A stretch of DNA of 64,000 nt, from the NCBI GenBank assembly GCA_016180805.1, contig JACPAM010000109.1:734-64733 (forward strand), read 5' to 3'. The notes under the pieces are model-generated. The model saw only the letters and a list, made by a program, of their open reading frames with translations. It did not search any database and was not told where the DNA came from. The stretch comes from Deltaproteobacteria bacterium. GTDB lineage: Bacteria; Desulfobacterota; Binatia; UBA9968. This document shows, in pieces, positions 18,534 to 57,318 of this stretch. A program made the position numbers and the translations under genes. Numbering within the stretch: position 1 is the first letter of the stretch; every line of letters begins with the position of its first letter.

Positions 18534-18732
18534 CCTCTCCTCCTTGTGTTAGTGGAACCACGCTTGAAGCGCTTCAAACCCACCATATGATTGCACGCGA
18601 CCTTCTGTCAAGGAATCCGGGCCAAATGGCCCATATGAACGGGCGGAGCCGCCCCTCCAGCCCGCGCGATGGTTCACCAGTCTCGGCGGCAAGCCTCTCC
18701 GTCCGAGGGCAATAACAAAATAAAAATCACGG

Positions 18733-18888
18733 CTCGCCCCCTCGACCGGCACACCTTCCCTTCGAAGCCCGAGGGGGACGAGGAGGAAGGCCGCGGACGT
18801 CCGATTACAGACGGTACGACTCATGGCACGAACGCATCGGCCGCGGCCTGATGGCTCGGCCCCCGAGGAGCTTTCGAGGGCATCATCG
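18733..18888 (+). repeat. structured intergenic repeat family, copy 1 (short variant)
   Basis: Shares CCCTCGAC..GAAGCCCGAGGGGGA, GAGGAGGAAGGCCGC, GGACGTCCGATTACAGACGGTACGACTCATGGCACGAAC..ATCGGCCGC and a CCCCCGAGGAGCTTTCGAGGG terminus with the other copies. Confidence 0.7.
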
Positions 18889-23669: not shown

Positions 23670-23695
23670 CGAACATAGCTTTGCCTTCTGTCGCT

Positions 23696-23852
23696 AAGCT
23701 CCCTCGGGGAGCGCGCTCTCCGCTGCGGCCGATGGGTTGTCCTCGCTTCGCTCAGAATTTCAGATTGCAGATCTCAGATCTGAGATTTGAAATTTGCGAT
23801 TTGCAATCCCGAAGGGCTTGTCCGCAGCCTCGCTCGCGCTCCCCTCGGTCGC
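23696..23852 (-). repeat. structured intergenic repeat family, copy 2 (reverse orientation, with AT-rich palindromic internal module GATTGCAGATCTCAGATCTGAGATTTGAAATTTGCGATTTGCAATC)
   Basis: Contains the reverse complement of the GCGACCGAGGGGAGCGCGAGCGAGGCTGCGG and ..CATCGGCCGCAGC.GAGAGCGCGCTCCCCGAGGGAGC modules. Lies between the convergent liv and ssu-like operons. Confidence 0.65.
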
Positions 23853-26573: not shown

Positions 26574-27388
26574 CGCATCCCTTCCTCGCGCTCTCTTCCC
26601 ATGGACTTGAGCACCTCGTCCTGGATGATGCTCCAGACGCGATCGGCGAGATCGAGAAATTCCTTGGTTCTTTTGACGCTCAGCGAACGGGGTCGAGGAA
26701 TGCTCACTTTGACGATCTCTCGGATGGTGGCGGGACGGGCCGAGAACACCACCACCCGGTCCGAGAGGAAAATCGCCTCTTCGATCTGGTGGGTGACGAA
26801 GATCACGGTCTTCCTCGTCTGGTTCCACATCTTTAAGAGCTCGGCTTGCATGATCTCCCGCGTTTGCGCGTCCAACGACGCGAAAGGCTCATCCATGAGG
26901 AGCACCTGCGGGTCAACGATCAGGGCGCGCGCCAGGTTGACGCGCTGCTGCATCCCTCCGGAAAGCTCGTGAGGATAGTGATTCTCAAAACCCGCGAGTC
27001 CCACGAGCGAAATATACCCTCCCGCTTTCCTCCTCGCCTCTCGCGTATCGACTCCCTGAAGCTCGAGGCCCAGAATGACGTTATCCATGACCGTGCGCCA
27101 AGGCAGAAGGGAAGAGTCCTGAAAGACGAACCCCTTGTCCGGGCCGGGCTTGATAACGGTCTTGCCGTCGAGAAGGATCTCTCCATCATCGTGGGAGATG
27201 AGCCCGTCGAGGATGCGCAAAAAAGTCGTCTTCCCGCACCCGCTCGGTCCCACCAGGGAGATGAACTCCGAAGGATGAACCTCCAGAGAAATATCTTCAA
27301 ACACCTGGACCGATTCCTCGGATCTCTGGCTGCGGAAAGCCTTGCGTAAATTGCGCACGACGAGTTTCGATGCAGGAGTTTCCATCAT
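26570..27388 (-). CDS. ABC transporter ATP-binding protein (SsuB/TauB/NitT family)
   Basis: Walker A GPSGCGKTT, signature LSGGMQQR. Confidence 0.85.
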   Translation of the reverse strand: MMETPASKLVVRNLRKAFRSQRSEESVQVFEDISLEVHPSEFISLVGPSGCGKTTFLRILDGLISHDDGEILLDGKTVIKPGPDKGFVFQDSSLLPWRTVMDNVILGLELQGVDTREARRKAGGYISLVGLAGFENHYPHELSGGMQQRVNLARALIVDPQVLLMDEPFASLDAQTREIMQAELLKMWNQTRKTVIFVTHQIEEAIFLSDRVVVFSARPATIREIVKVSIPRPRSLSVKRTKEFLDLADRVWSIIQDEVLKSMGREREEGMR

Positions 27389-27399
27389 ACCTCGGCCGC

Positions 27400-27560
27400 G
27401 TTCCCTCGAAAGCTCCTCGGGGGCCCGATCCGCCTCAGGCGGACGCGCACGTGCTTATCCGCGACCGAGGGGAGCGCGAGCGAGGCTGCGGACGTCCGAT
27501 TACAGACGGCACGACTCATGGCACGAACCCATCGGCCGCAGCCGAGAGCCCTTCCTATGC
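27400..27560 (+). repeat. structured intergenic repeat family, copy 3
   Basis: CCCTCGAAAGCTCCTCGGGGGCC..CGCCTCAGGCGG..GCGACCGAGGGGAGCGCGAGCGAGGCTGCGGACGTCCGATTACAGACGGCACGACTCATGGCACGAACCCATCGGCCGCAGCCGAGAG. Confidence 0.7.
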
Positions 27561-27607
27561 AAGGGCGAAAACTGTTTCACGAGCGTTCCTCTGCACCTTC
27601 CAGATGT

Positions 27608-28104: not shown

Positions 28105-29550
28105 CTAAGGATGCCGCGCGAGCAAAACCGACATGCCATCGCTCAGTTGGGTCATCTGTCCGAGGAACAAACTCGCCCGGGCGAAAAGAAAACAGTTCCG
28201 AGCTTCCCCCTCGGTCAATTCCCGGTGCGCATGGGGAAGATAAGCCAGGGCCGAAGCGATATGCCCCTGGGTCGGGGCAAAACCAGGAACCCCTTTTCGC
28301 TTCATGAAGTCCTGCATCTCAGAGCGCGCCATCTTACCGCCGGAAACCAAGACTGCAGCCAGCATCTTGTAGTTGCGCTCCGGGATATCGCCGCCGTTGG
28401 CCGGCACGGTGATCTCGGGATTGTGCAGCTCGGTCACGAATCTGTCCACAGAGGCTGCGGTTAAATCCAACCGCTCCATCGGCTCCAGCACGATCGCCTT
28501 GAGCTGCTTATCCAACGCCGCCCCTGACCGCACCGGGTGACGCCCCACGCTGGCGAGGTTGATTACCGGGCTTTTGCCATCGTCCCGCCCGATCCAAACC
28601 GCGGCCGCAGCCAGCACGTCCTCGAGCACCGGCATGCCCTTCTCCAAATGGTAGAGAAATTTCATACCGAGTTTCGGGAGCGAGGCGCCGCCGACAACGA
28701 CGACGTTCTCAAAGACACCGCTGTGCACCAGCGCGGCTCCGGTCACGAGAGCCGGAATCGGGGCGGCGCAGAAGTTTTTGATGTCCATACCGGAGGCCAG
28801 CACGCAACCAGCAAACTCGGCCACGGCCTTGGCGAGATTGCCGCCGCCGCGCTGGTAGCGATCTCCGACCGCCTCCTCCGAACAGCTCAAGACGTAGTCG
28901 ACTTTCTGTTCCGAGAGCGCAGGATGGCGCATCAGGAGCTCGCGAACCGCCAAGGCCGCGGAAACCTTGACACAGAGATTCTCTAGCAAAACGTTCGCCG
29001 TAAGCGAGCCATCCTCATGATGCGCGTGTCTGATCCAGCCGATCGGTTGAGAATCGGTGCCGGTAAAGAGCGCGATCCCGTCCCCCTTGGCTATATCGGC
29101 GCGGAGCCGGTCGCGCGTGACGAGCGAGGGCGAGACTGTAGCCAAGGGCTGGAACAGCGGCACCGCCCGCAAACGCGGGCTGATATCCTGCCAAAAACCT
29201 TCAAATAAAGAAACGTGTTTGAAGACATCAGCGAGGGCCACAAGCCCGACGAAAGATCGCTCATCGATGAAATCGCCGAAGGCCCGACGATCGTTCGCGA
29301 GCGGTGATGGCCGCCCATACCACGGCCTTTCTACCTCGTAAAGGCTGGAGATGGGCGTCTGGCCAAGAAACACCCGGTTCGGCAAGTAAGCCTCGGCCTG
29401 TTCATGGGATTGGAGGCTCTTTTGAAGCTCATCAAGCCTCGAAGGGCGGTCTTGAATCTCCCGCCACGGCTTGGAGCCATAGCGGACGAGCCCGGGGGCG
29501 TGGATCAACACGCTGCTTGCGCCGTTAACAACGGGGGTGAAGCTCGCCAT
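28105..29550 (-). CDS. grdC: glycine/sarcosine/betaine reductase complex component C beta-subunit-like protein (GrdC)
   Basis: 481 aa. Blocks VLIHAPG, QRGGGNLAKAVAEFAG, KNFCAAP, NYKMLAAV, APTQGHI and GxxSLFLGQMT align with GrdC as recalled from memory. Confidence 0.65.
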   Translation of the reverse strand: MASFTPVVNGASSVLIHAPGLVRYGSKPWREIQDRPSRLDELQKSLQSHEQAEAYLPNRVFLGQTPISSLYEVERPWYGRPSPLANDRRAFGDFIDERSFVGLVALADVFKHVSLFEGFWQDISPRLRAVPLFQPLATVSPSLVTRDRLRADIAKGDGIALFTGTDSQPIGWIRHAHHEDGSLTANVLLENLCVKVSAALAVRELLMRHPALSEQKVDYVLSCSEEAVGDRYQRGGGNLAKAVAEFAGCVLASGMDIKNFCAAPIPALVTGAALVHSGVFENVVVVGGASLPKLGMKFLYHLEKGMPVLEDVLAAAAVWIGRDDGKSPVINLASVGRHPVRSGAALDKQLKAIVLEPMERLDLTAASVDRFVTELHNPEITVPANGGDIPERNYKMLAAVLVSGGKMARSEMQDFMKRKGVPGFAPTQGHIASALAYLPHAHRELTEGEARNCFLFARASLFLGQMTQLSDGMSVLLARHP

Positions 29551-29555
29551 CCTTC

Positions 29556-29700
29556 AAAACTCTCCGGCATTCCTTCGAAAGCTCCTCGGGGCCGAGCCGC
29601 CTCAGGCGACCGAGCAGAGGGCTTCGGGACTCCCTTCGCTCCACGGGACTGCGCGACGCGACCCCAGTTTGGTCTATTTCGTCATTTAGTCTTTGCATCG
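29556..29700 (+). repeat. structured intergenic repeat family, copy 4 (partial/divergent), inside the grd cluster
   Basis: Shares CTTCGAAAGCTCCTCGGGGCC..GCCGCCTCAGGCG with copy 3. Inserted between grdE and grdC. Confidence 0.55.
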
Positions 29701-39946: not shown

Positions 39947-39971
39947 GGGTTCTTTTTTGAACCGTTGACGG

Positions 39972-40997
39972 CTATTTGAGAATCTCCTTTAAGTTCCCCA
40001 CAATCACGGGCTTCAACTCAAATAGACCGGCGACGGTTTTCGCAAGCTCTTCTGCCGGCACGGGATCGATCTCCAGATTGGATTTCTTGGCGTCAGCCAG
40101 AAATTCCGCGTCGCGCATCGTATCCATGAACGCCTTTCGCACCGCAGCTACCCTATCCTTCGGCGTGCCAGGAGGCAGGGTGAAAGGACGGATGAGCGCG
40201 CTCATGTCGTGAATTCCCGCCTGAAGCAACTGCCGCGCCTGATCGGTCTTAGCGAAATTGATCGCGAGCGGGACTCCGGCCAAGTCGCGGCGCGGCTTCG
40301 GCATCATCTGCAGCACAACCACCACCGCGCCCGATTCCACCGCCTTGGTCCACACGGCCTTGACCGAAAACCAGTTCCACCCGCATGACCCTGCCACCTC
40401 CCCGCTTTCGGCCGCAAGCCGAACATCGGCAGTCCCTTTGTAGCCCGAAACGAGCTGGATCGGAAGATCGAGGGCAGCCTTCAGGATTTTTGGATGGTCA
40501 TTGGTGGGATCTCCCGGACCGGTACCACCCAATTTGACCGGCGTCTTGGCAGCAATTAGTTTCTCCATGCTCGTGACCCCGCTCGCTTTGGTCAGAACAC
40601 ATACGGGGCTGTCCTTAACCGGCGCGCCGACGTACTCAAACTTACGGGCATCAAATTCAACGCCCTGCCTTCCCAGAAGCTGCTGTAAAAAAAGCCCCCC
40701 GATAAAATGGCCGATGGTAAGGCCGTCGGGCTGAGCCACCTTATAAAGATGGTTGGCGGAAATAAGGCTTCCGGCTCCCGGCATGTTTTCTACAATGATT
40801 GTCGGGTTACCCGGTATGTGCCTCCCGAAATGACGGGCGATAGCACGTGTGTACGTATCGAAGCCCCCTCCGGCCGAGAAGCCCACGACGATACGAACCG
40901 TTTTGCCCTTGTAAAAATCATGCGTGCTCGCTCGCGCTTCGTCTGAGGCGATGGCAAGCCCAATGAGTAAGGCTACAAAGCTAAAAACACTTTTCAT
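39972..40997 (-). CDS. tripartite tricarboxylate transporter substrate-binding protein (Bug/TctC family), orphan
   Basis: Signal peptide and the IIVENMPGAGS motif typical of the Bug family. No tctA/tctB adjacent. Confidence 0.7.
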   Translation of the reverse strand: MKSVFSFVALLIGLAIASDEARASTHDFYKGKTVRIVVGFSAGGGFDTYTRAIARHFGRHIPGNPTIIVENMPGAGSLISANHLYKVAQPDGLTIGHFIGGLFLQQLLGRQGVEFDARKFEYVGAPVKDSPVCVLTKASGVTSMEKLIAAKTPVKLGGTGPGDPTNDHPKILKAALDLPIQLVSGYKGTADVRLAAESGEVAGSCGWNWFSVKAVWTKAVESGAVVVVLQMMPKPRRDLAGVPLAINFAKTDQARQLLQAGIHDMSALIRPFTLPPGTPKDRVAAVRKAFMDTMRDAEFLADAKKSNLEIDPVPAEELAKTVAGLFELKPVIVGNLKEILK

Positions 40998-41169
40998 ATT
41001 ACCTTCCCTCATTAATTGCGGACATCAGGGTTAACGAGCGCCTTCTATCATAGATCATTCTGAAAGGCCACACGTGCTATTTTTCCTGAACACTCAAACG
41101 CCACTGCGCGATAGTTAGGGGACCTCGCCCAGCTTCGGACTTGACTAAACGCCCGTGGGTCGGACCACG

Positions 41170-41973
41170 CTATGTCTCAGTGTTTTCAGCGTTTTCCTTC
41201 CAAAAGATAGTATTCTCGGGCGTTAGCACCTCACTTTCGCCCCGAAAATCACCCGCATAAGCCTCTCTTTCTTCCCGCAATACGTACGTTCCGCCGATCT
41301 CCGCGACTTTGCGATGTATGGCTTTGATCCCAAGCTCGTTCTTAACGTTGTCAATAAAAGCCGAACTGCCAACGGCGATAGCCTCTGACCAGCGATCGTC
41401 TCGCACCGCCATCCCGCGCATTAGCGCTTCCTCAACCCATTGGCGGTGTGCTTGCTGAAAATCCGCTACTTCCCCAAAGCCACATAAGGCGCTTAGGCCC
41501 CGAAGATCGATAATCCCATAGCGCTCGGGTGGCTTTTGAATCTCGCGGTAGCCACTCTGTGCCCATTCGCTTGGATGCTGAACCACACGTGCCCGTACCA
41601 TGTTCAAGTCAATATAGACAAGACAGCGATGCAGGTGCTCGTCGGCCTCGATAGCGGTGGCATGGTAACGATCCTCCCAGAACGCTCCCTGCCGCCCTTT
41701 GCGCTGGTTGTATTCTTGCGCGGTGCGTCCGGCAATTAGCTGCATGCTCTGCGGAATCACCTCTCGGCCCGTATCCCTTACCAGGAGATGCACGTGGTTG
41801 GACGTCACCATATAGTTAAGCACCGAGAGGCCGAATCGCTTTTTGGCCTTAAAGACCCAATGCAAGTAACGGCGTCGATCCCGCGCAAACTTCAAGAGGA
41901 ATGTCTTGTGGTGGCAGCGGTGAGTGATGTGCCAAATGTAGCCGGGCAGAAAATGGCGGCTGGCGCGGGGCAT
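41170..41973 (-). mobile_element. REP-associated tyrosine transposase (RAYT, IS200-like TnpA_REP)
   Basis: 267 aa. HuH motif NHVHLLV, RKGRQGAFWEDRYHA..., YIDLNMVRARVV..PSEWAQSGY with a catalytic Tyr. Flanked by the inverted 10-mers GGGTCGGACC (near 41146) and GGTCCGACCC (near 42083). Confidence 0.8.
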
Positions 41974-42176
41974 CGCTTCTATTCCTTAGAGTGGATAATT
42001 CACTGTCAAAAACGCGCCGCTAAGCCTCTGAAGCGCTTCTATTCTTGAATTTTTTGGCGTGAGATCAGTACCTTGCCCAGGTCCGACCCCGCGCTGCCCC
42101 GCGCTGGTGAAGGCGATGTGCGCCCAGAATATGGGAACGTCCGTTTTTCCCCAGCAGAATCGAGTAAAATTCCTAG

Positions 42177-44429
42177 CTAAGAGGATGGCTCGTGGAGCAG
42201 CGCGTGGACGCGCTCGCTGGTCATTGGCAGGCGAACAACGCGGACGCCGATAGCGGCGCTCACCGCGTTAGCGACGGCTGCGCCCACAGGATCCAGAGTT
42301 CCCTCCGCGAAGCCTTTGGCACCGAAGGGACCTGTCGGCTCAGGGTCTTCGACGATCTCGACCGAGATCTCCTCGGGCACGTCGAAGCTGGTGGGGACGA
42401 GATAGGTGGCAAACGAAGGGTTGCTTACTCCTCCGTTAACTTTGACCTCCTCGGTGAGGGCGTATCCGATGCCCATCATCACGCCTCCCCTTACCTGCCC
42501 CTCCACAGTTATCGGGTTGATCAGGCGCCCAACATCGCACACGGCGGCGTAGCGTAACACTTGAACCTGCCCCGTTCCTTCGTCCACATCGACTAATGCG
42601 GCATGGGTGCTAAAGCTGTAAGTTCCCGCAGCACTCCCCTGCCCTGTTTCCGGATCCAGAGGTTCGGTCTCGGGCATAAAGTCCGCGACCGCGGTAATCT
42701 CATGATAAACATGTCTGTTGAAAAGATCGGCTAGAGTGATCCCGCGCTCGCGATACGCCACCACACCGTCCACCAACCTGAGATCTTCCGGGTCACACCC
42801 CAAATCCCGTCCCGCCAGCTCCAGCACTTGCCGCCGTACTTTTTCAGCGGCAAGCCGCACGGCGTTTCCTGAAAGGTAGGTAACCCGGCTCGCCGAAGTC
42901 GACTCGCAGTCGGGTGCAACGGCGGTGTCGTTGGTCAGAAGCTGAATCCGATCGACATCAACTCCCAGTACTTCAGCCGCCACCTGCGCCATCATAATGT
43001 CCGAGCCTTGGCCGAGATCGACGTGCCCGCAGGCTATCGTCACGCTGCCATCCGGACTGAGGGTTACAATAGCCGTGCTGCGGGACGATTTGCGGATGCT
43101 GCCGATGCTTCGGGTGCTGCATCCCACGCCGATCCCGCGCCGCTTTCCTTTCGGAGCCTTGGCCAGCAGTGGCTTGAAGGAGTCCGCGGCACGTTTCGTC
43201 CGCTGGAGCATCTCCTTGAACGGGACGCTCGCATGCAAAACCTGGCCTGTGGCAGTCGGCAACGTGGTATCCAGGGCGTTGCGCATCCTGACTTCGATCG
43301 GGTCGAGCCCGACACGGGTTGCCAATTCATCCATAAGAGATTCGAGGGCGAAAGCAATCTGAGGTATCCCGTAGCCGCGCATCGCGCCGCACGGGACCGT
43401 GTGGGTGAAGACAGCGTAGCCGTCAGCTTTCACACTGGGAATGTAATAGGGGCCGGTGACGTGGGTAACGGACTTCGTAATCACCGCTCGCCCCTCGTAG
43501 AGATACGCCCCGGTATCGCCTACCAGGGTCGCTTCGATGGCCAAGAGCTTGCCCTCTTTCGTGGCCCCGAGCTTGAGGTCCATCACGTAGGGGTGACGCT
43601 TGTGGCTGGCGATGATGGACTCGTCCCGCTGGTATTTGACCTTTGCGGGCCGCCCCGTCTTCCAGGCGATCAACGCGGCGCAACACTGAGCATGAGGAGT
43701 GAGCTTGCCGCCGAAGCCGCCGCCGGTAGTCATCTGGTGAACCCGAACACGGCTTTGGGGCAGCCCGAGCATGCGGGAGACTTCTTCCCGATCACGGTGA
43801 GGGTATTGCGTGGAAGACCAGATGGTTATCCCTCCTTGAGGATCGACGGCGGCCACGGCCCCCTCTGGCTCCATGTAGGCGTGCTCGATGCGCTGCGTGA
43901 AAAAACGCCTTTCGAGCACGACGGCCGCGTCCCGCAGCGCCGCTTGCACGTCGCCGCGACGAGCCTTGAAATGAGTCCCGATGTTTCCGGCAGGATGCAC
44001 CGAGGGCGCTCCCGGTTCCATCGCCTTCAGCGGATCCATCACCGCGGGTAGAACCTCGTAGTTGACCACAACCTGCGCCATCGCCTCCTCCGCAGCCCGC
44101 TCCGTCTCCGCCGCAACCACGGCAACCGCGTCACCAGCGAAGCGGACCACATCCCCGCACAGGATGGGTTGATCTTTGATGATGGCTCCGATCGAGTTGG
44201 CACCTGGGATATCTTGGGCGGTGAGAACCGCGAGCACCCCCGGATGCTTGAGCGCCCGCGAGGCATCAATGGAACGAACCCGCGCGTGGGGATGGGGGCT
44301 TCGAAGCACCTTACCGTAAATCATCCCCGGAAGCGCAAGGTCGTCGACGTATCGAGCCTCGCCGGCCACCTTTCCCGGCGCATCCTTCCGCAAGATAGGC
44401 TTGCCGATGATTTTCCCGACGTGATTCAC
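42177..44429 (-). CDS. xanthine dehydrogenase family molybdopterin-binding subunit (CoxL/HcrA-like)
   Basis: 750 aa. Aldehyde oxidase/xanthine dehydrogenase a/b hammerhead and MoCo-binding profile. Last gene of the FAD-FeS-Mo operon. Confidence 0.85.
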   Translation of the reverse strand: MNHVGKIIGKPILRKDAPGKVAGEARYVDDLALPGMIYGKVLRSPHPHARVRSIDASRALKHPGVLAVLTAQDIPGANSIGAIIKDQPILCGDVVRFAGDAVAVVAAETERAAEEAMAQVVVNYEVLPAVMDPLKAMEPGAPSVHPAGNIGTHFKARRGDVQAALRDAAVVLERRFFTQRIEHAYMEPEGAVAAVDPQGGITIWSSTQYPHRDREEVSRMLGLPQSRVRVHQMTTGGGFGGKLTPHAQCCAALIAWKTGRPAKVKYQRDESIIASHKRHPYVMDLKLGATKEGKLLAIEATLVGDTGAYLYEGRAVITKSVTHVTGPYYIPSVKADGYAVFTHTVPCGAMRGYGIPQIAFALESLMDELATRVGLDPIEVRMRNALDTTLPTATGQVLHASVPFKEMLQRTKRAADSFKPLLAKAPKGKRRGIGVGCSTRSIGSIRKSSRSTAIVTLSPDGSVTIACGHVDLGQGSDIMMAQVAAEVLGVDVDRIQLLTNDTAVAPDCESTSASRVTYLSGNAVRLAAEKVRRQVLELAGRDLGCDPEDLRLVDGVVAYRERGITLADLFNRHVYHEITAVADFMPETEPLDPETGQGSAAGTYSFSTHAALVDVDEGTGQVQVLRYAAVCDVGRLINPITVEGQVRGGVMMGIGYALTEEVKVNGGVSNPSFATYLVPTSFDVPEEISVEIVEDPEPTGPFGAKGFAEGTLDPVGAAVANAVSAAIGVRVVRLPMTSERVHALLHEPSS

Positions 44430-47778: not shown

Positions 47779-47789
47779 CTCAGCGGTCC

Positions 47790-47897
47790 GCGACCGAGGG
47801 GAGCGCAAGCGAGGCTGCGGACGTCCGATCACAGACGATGCGACTCATGGCACGAACCTATCGGCCGCAACCGAGAGGGCGCTTCCCGAGGGAGCTT
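47790..47897 (+). repeat. structured intergenic repeat family, copy 5 (core only)
   Basis: GCGACCGAGGGGAGCGCAAGCGAGGCTGCGGACGTCCGATCACAGACGATGCGACTCATGGCACGAACCTATCGGCCGCAACCGAGAGGGCGCTTCCCGAGGGAGCTT. Begins 12 nt after the ligase stop. Confidence 0.7.
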
Positions 47898-47964
47898 AGT
47901 CCATCGGCCGCCGCCTGGGTCTGCAAGCACTACCGGACAGCGGAAATACGCGAGCGGAAAGTAA

Positions 47965-52491: not shown

Positions 52492-52569
52492 GGCATTTCC
52501 CCCTTTCCACAGACGGAGTTTTAACTAATACAAACGACTTAACTCGTGTTACGTTTCCTCAGGGGGCAA

Positions 52570-52745
52570 GCCTTCCGGCCGCAGCCGATAGACTAGGCTC
52601 CCTCGGGAAGCCCGCTCTCGGCTTCGTGCCATGAGTCGTACCGTCTGTAATCGGACGTCCGCAGCCTCGCTCGCGCTCCCCTCGGTCGCGAGCAAGCATG
52701 TCTGCGTCCTTCAGTCTCGCCCCCTTCGGAAGCTGTTGTCGTATC
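52570..52745 (-). repeat. structured intergenic repeat family, copy 6 (reverse orientation)
   Basis: Contains the reverse complement of the GCGACCGAGGGGAGCGCGAGCGAGGCTGCGGACGTCCGATTACAGACGGTACGACTCATGGCACGAA core. Confidence 0.7.
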
Positions 52746-57039: not shown

Positions 57040-57318
57040 CTCGCCGCCTCAGGTGGATTGCCCCCTCGACAGGCACGTTTCCACTTCGAAGCTCGAGGGG
57101 GACCAGGAGGAAGGCCGCAGTCTAGCTTGCCCGCGACCGAGGGGAGTGCGAGCGAGGCTGCGGACGTCCGATTACAAACGGCACGAATCATGGCATGAAC
57201 CCATCGGCCGCAGCCGAGAGCGCGCTCCCCGAGGGAGCTTCCTGACGGGGACAGGCACGCAAGCGAGCCAGTCCCCTTGCCGCGGCCTTCTTCCTCGTCC
57301 CCCGAGGAGCTTTCATAG
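57040..57318 (+). repeat. structured intergenic repeat family, copy 7 (longest, composite: contains all modules)
   Basis: CCCCCTCGA..TCGAGGGGG hairpin, GGAGGAAGGCCGC paired 160 nt downstream with GCGGCCTTCTTCCTC, the central core GCGACCGAGGGGAGTGCGAGCGAGGCTGCGGACGTCCGATTACAAACGGCACGAATCATGGCATGAACCCATCGGCCGCAGCCGAGAG, and the terminus CCCCCGAGGAGCTTTC. Confidence 0.7.

Follow-up and report, generated by a model that had tools for sequence, protein, structure and literature searches.

A RAYT-like transposase gene in a Binatia genome as the probable core of an IS-like TIRtron

A RAYT-like gene in the 64,000-nucleotide stretch of Binatia DNA analysed here (the window) is flanked by two terminal inverted repeats (TIRs) of ~25 nt and not by REPs, which places it among the TIRtrons, and its product among the TIRYTs, in the sense of Di Nocera, De Gregorio & Rocco (2013, BMC Genomics 14:522; PMC3733652). 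In that paper, which coined both names, a TIRtron is a RAYT-like gene with terminal inverted repeats and the TIRYT is its protein. We hold with considerable confidence that the feature is an IS-like copy of such an element, composed of a single TIRYT gene, a leader of ~90 nt and the two ~25-nt TIRs. The cognate repeat of the enzyme is presumably its own TIR, and not one of the window's other repeats. The relatives collected around this copy define a very large and sharply conserved subfamily, with a ~25-nt end consensus, a leader module, MITE-like derivatives and a reproducible signature of reiterated ends. It offers concrete substrates for work on DNA cleavage and joining by TIR-associated HUH transposases.

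Terminal inverted repeats, leader and locus

The spacer between a tctC-like gene and a xanthine-dehydrogenase (XDH)-family gene is 1164 nt long and has one intact open reading frame inside (Table 1). The median TIR-to-TIR length in the family is 933 bp.

Table 1. Positions of the element, its parts and its neighbouring genes in the window.
Feature	Position	Strand	Remarks
tctC-like gene	39972-41012	minus	
Xanthine-dehydrogenase-family Mo-subunit (molybdopterin-subunit) gene	42177-44429	minus	
Whole TIR-bounded element (TIRtron), ~935 bp	41156..42090	minus	bounded by hits of the TIR position weight matrix (PWM)
Left TIR (IRL)	42064..42090	minus	minus-strand reading GGGGTCGGACCTGGGCAAGGTACTGAT; PWM 28.9 bits
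Leader	41974..42063	minus	CTTAG(A/C)...TTTTT...CTCTAAGGA module, alignment A2
TIRYT gene, 267 aa, intact	41170..41973	minus	Y1/HUH nuclease domain plus C-terminal extension
Right TIR (IRR)	41156..41182	plus	inward plus-strand reading TGGGTCGGACCACGCTATGTCTCAGTG; PWM 21.6 bits
Tandem reiteration, CAGCGCGGGG x2	42087..42106	minus	outer edge of left TIR

The exact 10-mer GGGTCGGACC stands on the plus strand at 41157-41166, and its reverse complement, GGTCCGACCC, at 42080-42089. The initial annotation had recognized that inverted 10-mers flank the gene, at ~41146 and ~42083, and these proved to be exact and conserved, but the first begins at 41157 and not at ~41146, a displacement of 11 nt. Judged by the window by itself, the pair does not exceed chance. 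Shuffled 250-nt flanks gave inverted matches with a mean length of 8 nt and a maximum of 10-11 nt, and the 10-mer showed no enrichment in the window at one mismatch (4 sites against 7.5 expected).

We count the pair as real because it is conserved in relatives at identical positions. For this comparison, 80 genomic loci of relatives at 54-75% identity were fetched, 75 of them testable, from Binatia, Acidobacteriota, Burkholderiales, several orders of Desulfobacterota, Zetaproteobacteria, Gammaproteobacteria (Neptunomonas, Thioalkalivibrio, Motiliproteus), Planctomycetes (Scalindua) and Nitrospirota (Nitrospirae). The 250-nt flanks of ~55 of the 75 homologous loci have as their longest inverted match (G)GGGTCGGACC(AAG), situated ~116 nt before the ATG and within ~75 nt past the stop codon, most often at 3 nt. 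The left motif keeps an equal position in 58 of 66 relatives; in the window copy the IRL core, GGTCGGACC, starts 115 nt upstream of the ATG. The right TIR begins 3 nt after the stop in 25 of the 67 loci that have a right core, and at 6-75 nt otherwise. In that largest group, and likewise in the window, where the TAG stop codon (41170-41172) falls within the right TIR, the stop belongs to the repeat itself (GTTAGCTT-GGTCCGACC).

Both ends follow a single consensus, G-GGTCGGACC-A-A/C-G-n-T-A-A-C-n3/4-T-T-G-A, ~25 nt long and conserved from position -1 to about +23, and its core contains the 9-bp dyad GGTC-G-GACC. The three closest relatives (79-83% amino acid identity) carry the same ends. The 10-mers form the core of terminal inverted repeats of ~25 nt that are common to many bacterial phyla. 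A scan of the 64-kb window with the TIR PWM found two TIRs only, even at a threshold of at least 4 bits; the flanking motifs thus fail to recur beyond their two sites in the window, but they do recur in relatives.

The leader has a plan common to the family. TTGA closes the TIR and is followed by an A/T-rich stretch, then by GCTTAGA and, after 5-6 variable nt, by TTTTT. A loop separates this run from AAAA(A), and a further 5-6 variable nt lead to TCTAAGGA, ~8-15 nt upstream of the ATG. In relatives this module forms a stem-loop over the Shine-Dalgarno sequence AAGGA. Of 53 sequences, 75-90% keep the pairs of its outer stem, CUUAGA/UCUAAG, with GC, GU, AU and UA all occurring at pair 73-105, and the pairs between U-run and A-run are kept in 62-94% (33-50 of the 53). 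Scored with a structure given by hand, the covariation of the leader was reached by one of 500 shuffles, in an alignment whose mid-stem is poor (~35% of cells paired) and in which partners slid by +1 score equally well. RNAalifold, applied to the leader alignment, returned nothing useful, only two invariant pairs, both in the TIR. G-U pairing on the sense strand suggests that it is the mRNA, or the top strand, that folds over the Shine-Dalgarno sequence. IS200 likewise has a left-end hairpin over its ribosome-binding site.

In the window copy the gene is intact, the two TIRs agree only in their core and the leader module is degenerate. Positions 42019-42026 of the leader pair with 41983-41991, and CTTAG...CTAAGGA is kept, but the hairpin is weak (-5.6 kcal/mol, z +1.2). 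A consensus scan found no sigma-70-like promoter in the window leader, and no Rfam family matched anywhere in the window.

In the locus with the best relative of the XDH gene (L084; 86% nucleotide identity), a convergent cyclophilin gene comes directly after XDH. The window is 2.2 kb longer at this point, with 87 nt, then the element, then 144 nt and tctC, and this block, with the element and tctC together, was gained or lost as one unit. Neither this locus nor the other relatives of the XDH gene, which have different genes downstream, gave a clean empty site for the element by itself. A tctC homologue also follows the TIRYT gene in a second locus (L007), and two or three such cases occur among ~80 loci; we treated the linkage between tctC and the element as chance, the cases being few and the paralogous family very large.

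The transposase among TIRYTs and RAYTs

The identification of the gene as encoding a RAYT-like Y1/HUH tyrosine transposase, made at the outset from its HuH and Tyr motifs, was borne out by a Pfam Y1_Tnp match with an E-value of 1.2e-10. The HuH motif is NHVH (residues 59-62), the WE pair is conserved, and the catalytic-type Tyr motif reads YIDLNMVRA (Y120). The enzyme is of the single-strand DNA nuclease type. Its N-terminal Y1/HUH domain (H60, H62, Y120) spans residues ~1-160 and is followed by a C-terminal extension of ~100 residues that bears the TIRYT-type motif AVGSSAFIDNVKNELG. The best NCBIfam match is the equivalog model NF047646 (REP_Tyr_transpos), at 63.6 bits, below its cut-off of 80; the IS200 model, NF033573, scores 23.7, below its cut-off of 55. 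With 52 close homologues as input, AlphaFold gave a model that could not be used (pLDDT 45); a model built from a more diverse alignment is confident (pLDDT 87, pTM 0.81). Its fold is nearest to that of E. coli TnpA-REP, and the Y1/HUH fold is common to the TnpA proteins of IS608 and ISDra2. The extension, residues ~160-267, is partly well modelled. For this C-terminal part, a fold search gave no match, and among 52 members no Pfam domain and no helix-turn-helix type were found, even at E<=5-10.

The protein family is large, with more than 7,800 search hits, nearly all of 267 residues. The best 120 hits show 69-84% identity, and 388 clusters are formed at 50% identity with E<=1e-30. The Met of YIDLNM is nearly invariant down to 33% identity. 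A gene identical to that of the window occurs in the read sets SRR12113431, SRR12113432 and SRR12113425.

Sequences of published TIRYTs and RAYTs (supplementary file 5 of PMC3733652) were compared with the protein by blastp. The TIRYT tkm_1558 matched at 1.4e-24, with 29% identity over 217 residues that include the C-terminal motif, aligned as G-x-x-F-x-x-x-V-x-x-x-x-G, and three other TIRYTs, sml_1152 (3e-23), hch_1378 and sml_4509, matched at 1e-21 to 1e-23. The RAYT pfs_3939 reached 2e-8, and the E. coli RAYT b228 only 1e-3. By these scores the protein is closer to published TIRYTs than to RAYTs.

The element resembles the published TIRtrons in several further respects: a RAYT-like Y1 gene with TIRs in place of REP hairpins, at a fixed distance from the gene; a TIR whose start is G-rich and close to GGGGWSAS; a long protein with a C-terminal motif like LG-x-x-x-F-x-x-x-(I/V)E-x-x-x-G; and TIRs that occur elsewhere as singles, dimers or groups, there in some genomes and here in relatives. 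PMC3733652 describes many TIRs as lying at a constant distance from the gene and sharing GGGGWSAS, and the core here, GGGGTCGG, fits seven of those eight positions, with G for A at position 7. Identity to the published examples is just 23-33%, however, and the Tyr motif differs, being YIDLNM. In the portion of PMC3733652 available to us we found no description of a ~25-nt TIR common to several phyla, of the leader module or of mini-elements. We accordingly file the element as belonging to a distinct TIRtron subfamily, ~30% identical to the published examples.

Most TIRYTs belong to TnpA-Y1 subclass 2.1 of Quentin, Siguier, Chandler & Fichant (2018; PMC6006769), the second-largest TnpA-Y1 subclass, which is characterized by NHVH, W[EQ], YIELNP or Y[IV]HLNP, a C-terminal extension and the absence of REPs (PMC6006769) and corresponds to RAYT Group 1 of Bertels et al. 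(2017) (PMC5581495; PMC6006769). The protein agrees with this group in NHVH, WE, a Y-I-x-L-N Tyr motif and a C-terminal extension, as well as in having no REP beside its gene, in a wide and patchy distribution with many delta- and betaproteobacterial members, and in duplicates that are more IS-like than those of other RAYT groups. It departs from the group in that Met replaces the Pro of Y---NP found throughout class 2 and in its length, 267 residues where the group median is 238. A further difference is that the C-terminal part of 52 members showed no detectable similarity to Bac_DnaA_C, HTH_23 or HTH_28; a conserved extension of its own is reported for subgroup 2.1.1 (PMC6006769). On its motifs, the protein would be assigned to subclass 2.1/Group 1.

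The initial annotation had taken the 10-mers for a REP pair guarding a RAYT, and had supposed that the gene might mobilise one of the window's other repeat classes. The locus would then be a canonical REPtron, in which a domesticated RAYT with an inverted REP pair disperses the modular GC-rich repeats or the CCTCTCCC hairpins, the comparators being E. coli TnpA-REP (a RAYT; PDB 4ER8) with its REP/BIME sequences and the Pseudomonas RAYT-REPIN systems. Both the nearest fold and the best NCBIfam match point in this direction, as does the presence in the window of a REPIN-like modular repeat family. The NCBIfam score stays below its cut-off, however, and the blastp values favour the TIRYTs (1e-24) over the E. 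coli RAYT (1e-3).

The flanks also speak against a REPtron. In a REPtron the gene lies between inverted REPs, palindromes of 20-40 nt that form hairpins and bear a GTAG (or CGTC) tag. Folding of single-stranded DNA from both strands of both flanks revealed no hairpin (z -1.2 to +0.35), the 9-bp dyad is too short for a stable one, and no GTAG occurs within 41013-41169 or 41974-42176; what stands there instead are the ~25-nt TIRs. REPs are species-specific, whereas the same end sequence is common here to distant phyla, and, again unlike a REPtron, the gene-carrying unit itself appears to move and the window is without dispersed copies. The modular GC-rich repeats occupy seven sites in the window, all at least 5.7 kb from the element, share no sequence with the TIR and look like an unrelated REPIN-like inverted doublet. 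Since neither they nor the window's other repeats contain the TIR motif, and none adjoins the gene, the idea that the enzyme mobilises them is unsupported. The REPtron reading is already largely refuted, and we regard it as very improbable. For annotation, it follows that the gene is not to be labelled a REP-mobilising RAYT.

Mobility and derivatives in other genomes

The family is mobile in other genomes. In Pelotalea chapellei DSM 13688 a copy lies on each of two contigs, with 99.06% identity between them over 953 bp, and the two copies in Desulfosarcina alkanivorans PL12 are 99.07% identical over 967 bp. In both genomes, similarity between the copies ends ~5-15 nt outside the core, and the DNA beyond is unrelated. 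Where near-identical ends lie in different contexts (26 pairs), they stay identical for 0-12 nt past the core, mostly for 3-6. That such ends match for a few nucleotides past the core implies that the true tips are short and lineage-specific and lie outside the conserved TIR. The closest relatives of the window protein (79-83% amino acid identity) have unrelated gene neighbourhoods, and none of the 80 loci shares XDH/tctC synteny with the window. Direct repeats of at least 5 nt were found at both junctions in 2 of 55 elements, compared with a null of 1.3%, which indicates that there is no target-site duplication. Its absence fits HUH chemistry, unlike DDE transposition.

Derivatives are frequent. 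Truncated and tandem copies occur in five of the loci (L031, L033, L048, L050 and L074), and the flanks of the 80 loci (645 kb) contain 41 further TIR sites of at least 16 bits, some of them in gene-less inverted pairs, against none in shuffled sequence. We also scanned metagenome contigs for the 18-nt TIR consensus GGGTCGGACCAAGNTAAC, which was found on at least 120 contigs, and classed the TIRs by PWM and tblastn. The matches listed include 10 full elements, 11 cases of the gene with one TIR, 19 gene-less mini-elements of 166-445 bp and 53 solo TIRs, for which at least 1250 nt of contig extends inward without a partner or a gene; 51 further matches were not classed. In the mini-elements the left TIR and leader are kept, together with the final 50-130 nt of a full element. 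When they are folded, their TIRs pair into a terminal stem of 14-17 bp, which makes them the analogue of REPINs.

The solo TIRs are mostly left ends. Among the 53 listed, ~37 consist of TIR plus leader module, as judged by scores above the null on leader segments, and 43 are left-like by a cruder left-versus-right score. Some of these left-end modules form head-to-tail arrays. No consistent open reading frame, as of a captured downstream gene, was found behind the solo left ends.

These observations bear on the proposal that the gene is an immobile, domesticated host gene and that the flanking GGTC-G-GACC motifs are operators, or binding sites, for its autoregulation. Several facts would suit such a gene: the single copy in the window, the presence of most protein clusters on one contig, the very strong conservation of both length (267 aa) and sequence, and a core that is a 9-bp dyad of the type read by dimeric DNA-binding proteins. 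RAYT groups are, moreover, housekeeping-like overall according to Bertels et al. (PMC5581495), but the same study places Group 1 among the most IS-like of them. We consider domestication improbable in view of the 99%-identical copies with unrelated flanks in two genomes, the unrelated neighbourhoods of the closest relatives, the gene-less mini-elements, solo ends, and truncated and tandem copies, and a patchy spread across phyla at 55-84% identity. The window feature is an ordinary single copy of a TIRtron.

Membership in the IS200/IS605 group, with transposition by peel-and-paste through subterminal hairpins and inverted 10-mers that are incidental, is extremely unlikely, even though the element has a Y1/HUH fold in common with the TnpA of IS608 and ISDra2, makes no target-site duplication and, in the family, has a conserved hairpin in its left part. 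That hairpin lies ~70 nt inside the end, over the ribosome-binding site, and is without a right-end counterpart in full elements, so that there is no subterminal hairpin pair. The Tyr motif is not Y---Q, the protein is ~115 residues longer than IS200 TnpA (~150 aa), there is no tnpB, a gene that often accompanies TnpA in that family, and the inverted-repeat ends, conserved to the base, are absent from IS200/IS605 elements.

Reiterated outer tips and a proposed mechanism

Many members of the family have short tandem duplications directly outside the conserved core, at both ends. By a strict criterion, an exact second copy with a period of 5-30, 29% of left and 27% of right junctions are positive within 40 nt, compared with 2.2% of control windows from the same loci (p ~1e-15). 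An independent metagenome set agrees, with reiteration at 12 of 171 junctions among the matches listed versus 0.29% in controls. The inner ends of the tracts cluster at -2 to +2 of the first G of GGTCGGACC (22 of 39), and a minor class ends at +4 to +6, which is the dyad centre. In the window copy, the second CAGCGCGGGG unit, read on the gene strand, extends into the left TIR core. The closest relatives, L207 and L208, have in the analogous place GGAATCGGGTC x2 and a 19-nt unit x2. The reiterated unit is not the same at both ends of an element, nor from one relative to the next. In the portions available to us, the literature on TIRtrons and TnpA-Y1 transposases holds no description of such outer-edge tandem reiterations.

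Duplicated host flank, considered first as the source of the reiterations, does not fully account for them, since comparison of near-identical copies shows 3-12 nt outside the core to be carried along with the element. In D. alkanivorans the unit CGAAATGG is found in both of the 99%-identical copies, and therefore travels with the element. From the 3-12 nt that travel, it follows that the reiterated segment is, at least in part, the element's own lineage-specific tip.

We found no biochemical or other experimental work on any TIRYT in the literature searched; the strand and position of cleavage and the intermediates in the following scheme are what we infer. The TIRYT would recognise the TIRs. 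Being complementary, the two TIRs of one strand may pair into a stem, by analogy with the arms of a REPIN. The enzyme would then cut and rejoin single strands at the conserved core or a few bases outside it, and joining would proceed through a 5'-phosphotyrosine intermediate, with the target not duplicated. The end consensus, the mini-elements and the reiteration signature make this mechanism directly testable, and cultured hosts are at hand in Pelotalea chapellei DSM 13688, Desulfosarcina alkanivorans PL12 and Neptunomonas antarctica S3-22.

It is a speculative suggestion that the outer-edge reiterations are scars of repeated end processing. Such scars might arise by an HUH nick, limited polymerase extension and resealing, or by slippage, or a switch of template, at an end junction that is palindromic or bound by protein. 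A broader reading, which we put forward tentatively and think doubtful, would interpret the edge reiterations, the dyad-centre class and the head-to-tail arrays of left ends together as footprints of the enzyme's end processing, in which the 3'-OH at a nick would be lengthened by anything from a few bases to a few dozen and then sealed again to the 5' end held as phosphotyrosine. Were this true, the elements would record their own cleavage sites in their flanks, and the mechanism would be a symmetric one acting at both ends, unlike IS200/IS605 peel-and-paste and unlike REP processing. Longer duplications also occur, comprising a whole TIR and 10-20 outer nucleotides, with a period of 33-47.

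Left-end modules and partial copies of the element

Among the listed matches in the metagenome contigs (L087-L206), most gene-less, partnerless terminal inverted repeats (solo TIRs) are left-end modules, not right ends. Such a module consists of the TIR followed by the leader of about 90 nt, with its CTTAGA...TCTAAGGA hairpin. Several head-to-tail arrays of these modules, with periods of 36-47 or about 115 nt, occur among the same matches; example loci are listed in the table. Desulfosarcina alkanivorans (L031, L033) and Thioalkalivibrio (L074) have stacks of truncated copies of the element upstream of complete ones; these copies are composed of the left end and the first 57-184 codons of the gene for TIRYT, the RAYT-like Y1/HUH transposase.

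In many genome loci (L005, L007, L014, L020, L037, L041, L055, L068, L071, L076, L078), the assembly breaks at the left TIR or slightly beyond its outer edge, 100-350 nt before the start of TIRYT, which is consistent with repeated sequence at the left end of the element. At L048:4883-6554, two complete TIRYT genes lie head to tail with a gap of only 57 nt; missing from the second copy are its left TIR and roughly the first 60 nt of leader sequence.

Other repeats and GTAG content of the window

The window also carries a modular GC-rich repeat family (table) that is REPIN-like. Its core is an inverted doublet in which CGAGGGGAGCGCGAGCGAGGCTGCGGAC is followed by a spacer of about 50 nt (GTCCGATTACAGACGG...CATGGCACGAACCCATCG) and then by GCCGCAGCCGAGAGCGCGCTCCCCGAGGG, with GGACGTCC carried at the border of arm and spacer. 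The window sites are without the TIR motif, and within the window no Y1 gene adjoins them. One copy contains an A/T-rich near-palindrome, AATTTCAGATTGCAGATCTCAGATCTGAGATTTGAAATTTGCGATT.

Modular repeats of the window and example loci of solo left-end modules
Feature	Location	Context
Modular repeat, site 1	window 18731-18883	intergenic
Modular repeat, site 2	window 23694-23852	intergenic
Modular repeat, site 3	window 27381-27568	intergenic
Modular repeat, site 4	window 29550-29616	intergenic
Modular repeat, site 5	window 47788-47915	intergenic
Modular repeat, site 6	window 52558-52728	intergenic
Modular repeat, site 7	window 57055-57314	intergenic
A/T-rich near-palindrome	window 23756-23801	inside a modular repeat
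Solo left-end module or array	L132:1666-1728	
Solo left-end module or array	L100:424-538	
Solo left-end module or array	L137:3357-3480	
Solo left-end module or array	L142:5423-5545	
Solo left-end module or array	L156:96-491	

The tetranucleotide GTAG is over-represented in the window as a whole (296 sites, against 220 +/- 14 in shuffled sequence). The sites fall mostly on the plus strand of the first 20 kb, and there are none in the flanks of the TIRtron, the complete element. The excess most likely reflects the codon usage or strand composition of genes on the minus strand.

Genes around the element

The gene order TIRYT then tctC, present in the window, recurs in an Acidiferrales MAG (L007:207-2279), where a tctC/Bug-family homologue with 30% identity to that of the window lies directly downstream of TIRYT. 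In a Binatia MAG (L026:6952-7980), another, 36.5% identical, is separated from TIRYT remnants by about 4 kb. Because tctC/Bug-family genes are very numerous, both proximities are probably due to chance.

A 2.2-kb block of the window (39959-42192), in which the TIRtron is preceded by 87 nt and separated by 144 nt from the tctC gene that completes the block, is missing from a relative with 86% nucleotide identity in the xanthine dehydrogenase-family (XDH) gene (L084:3994-4026). The limits of the indel are not TIRs: it begins just past the stop codon of XDH and ends at that of tctC. In the relative, a convergent cyclophilin gene follows the XDH stop within 31 nt.
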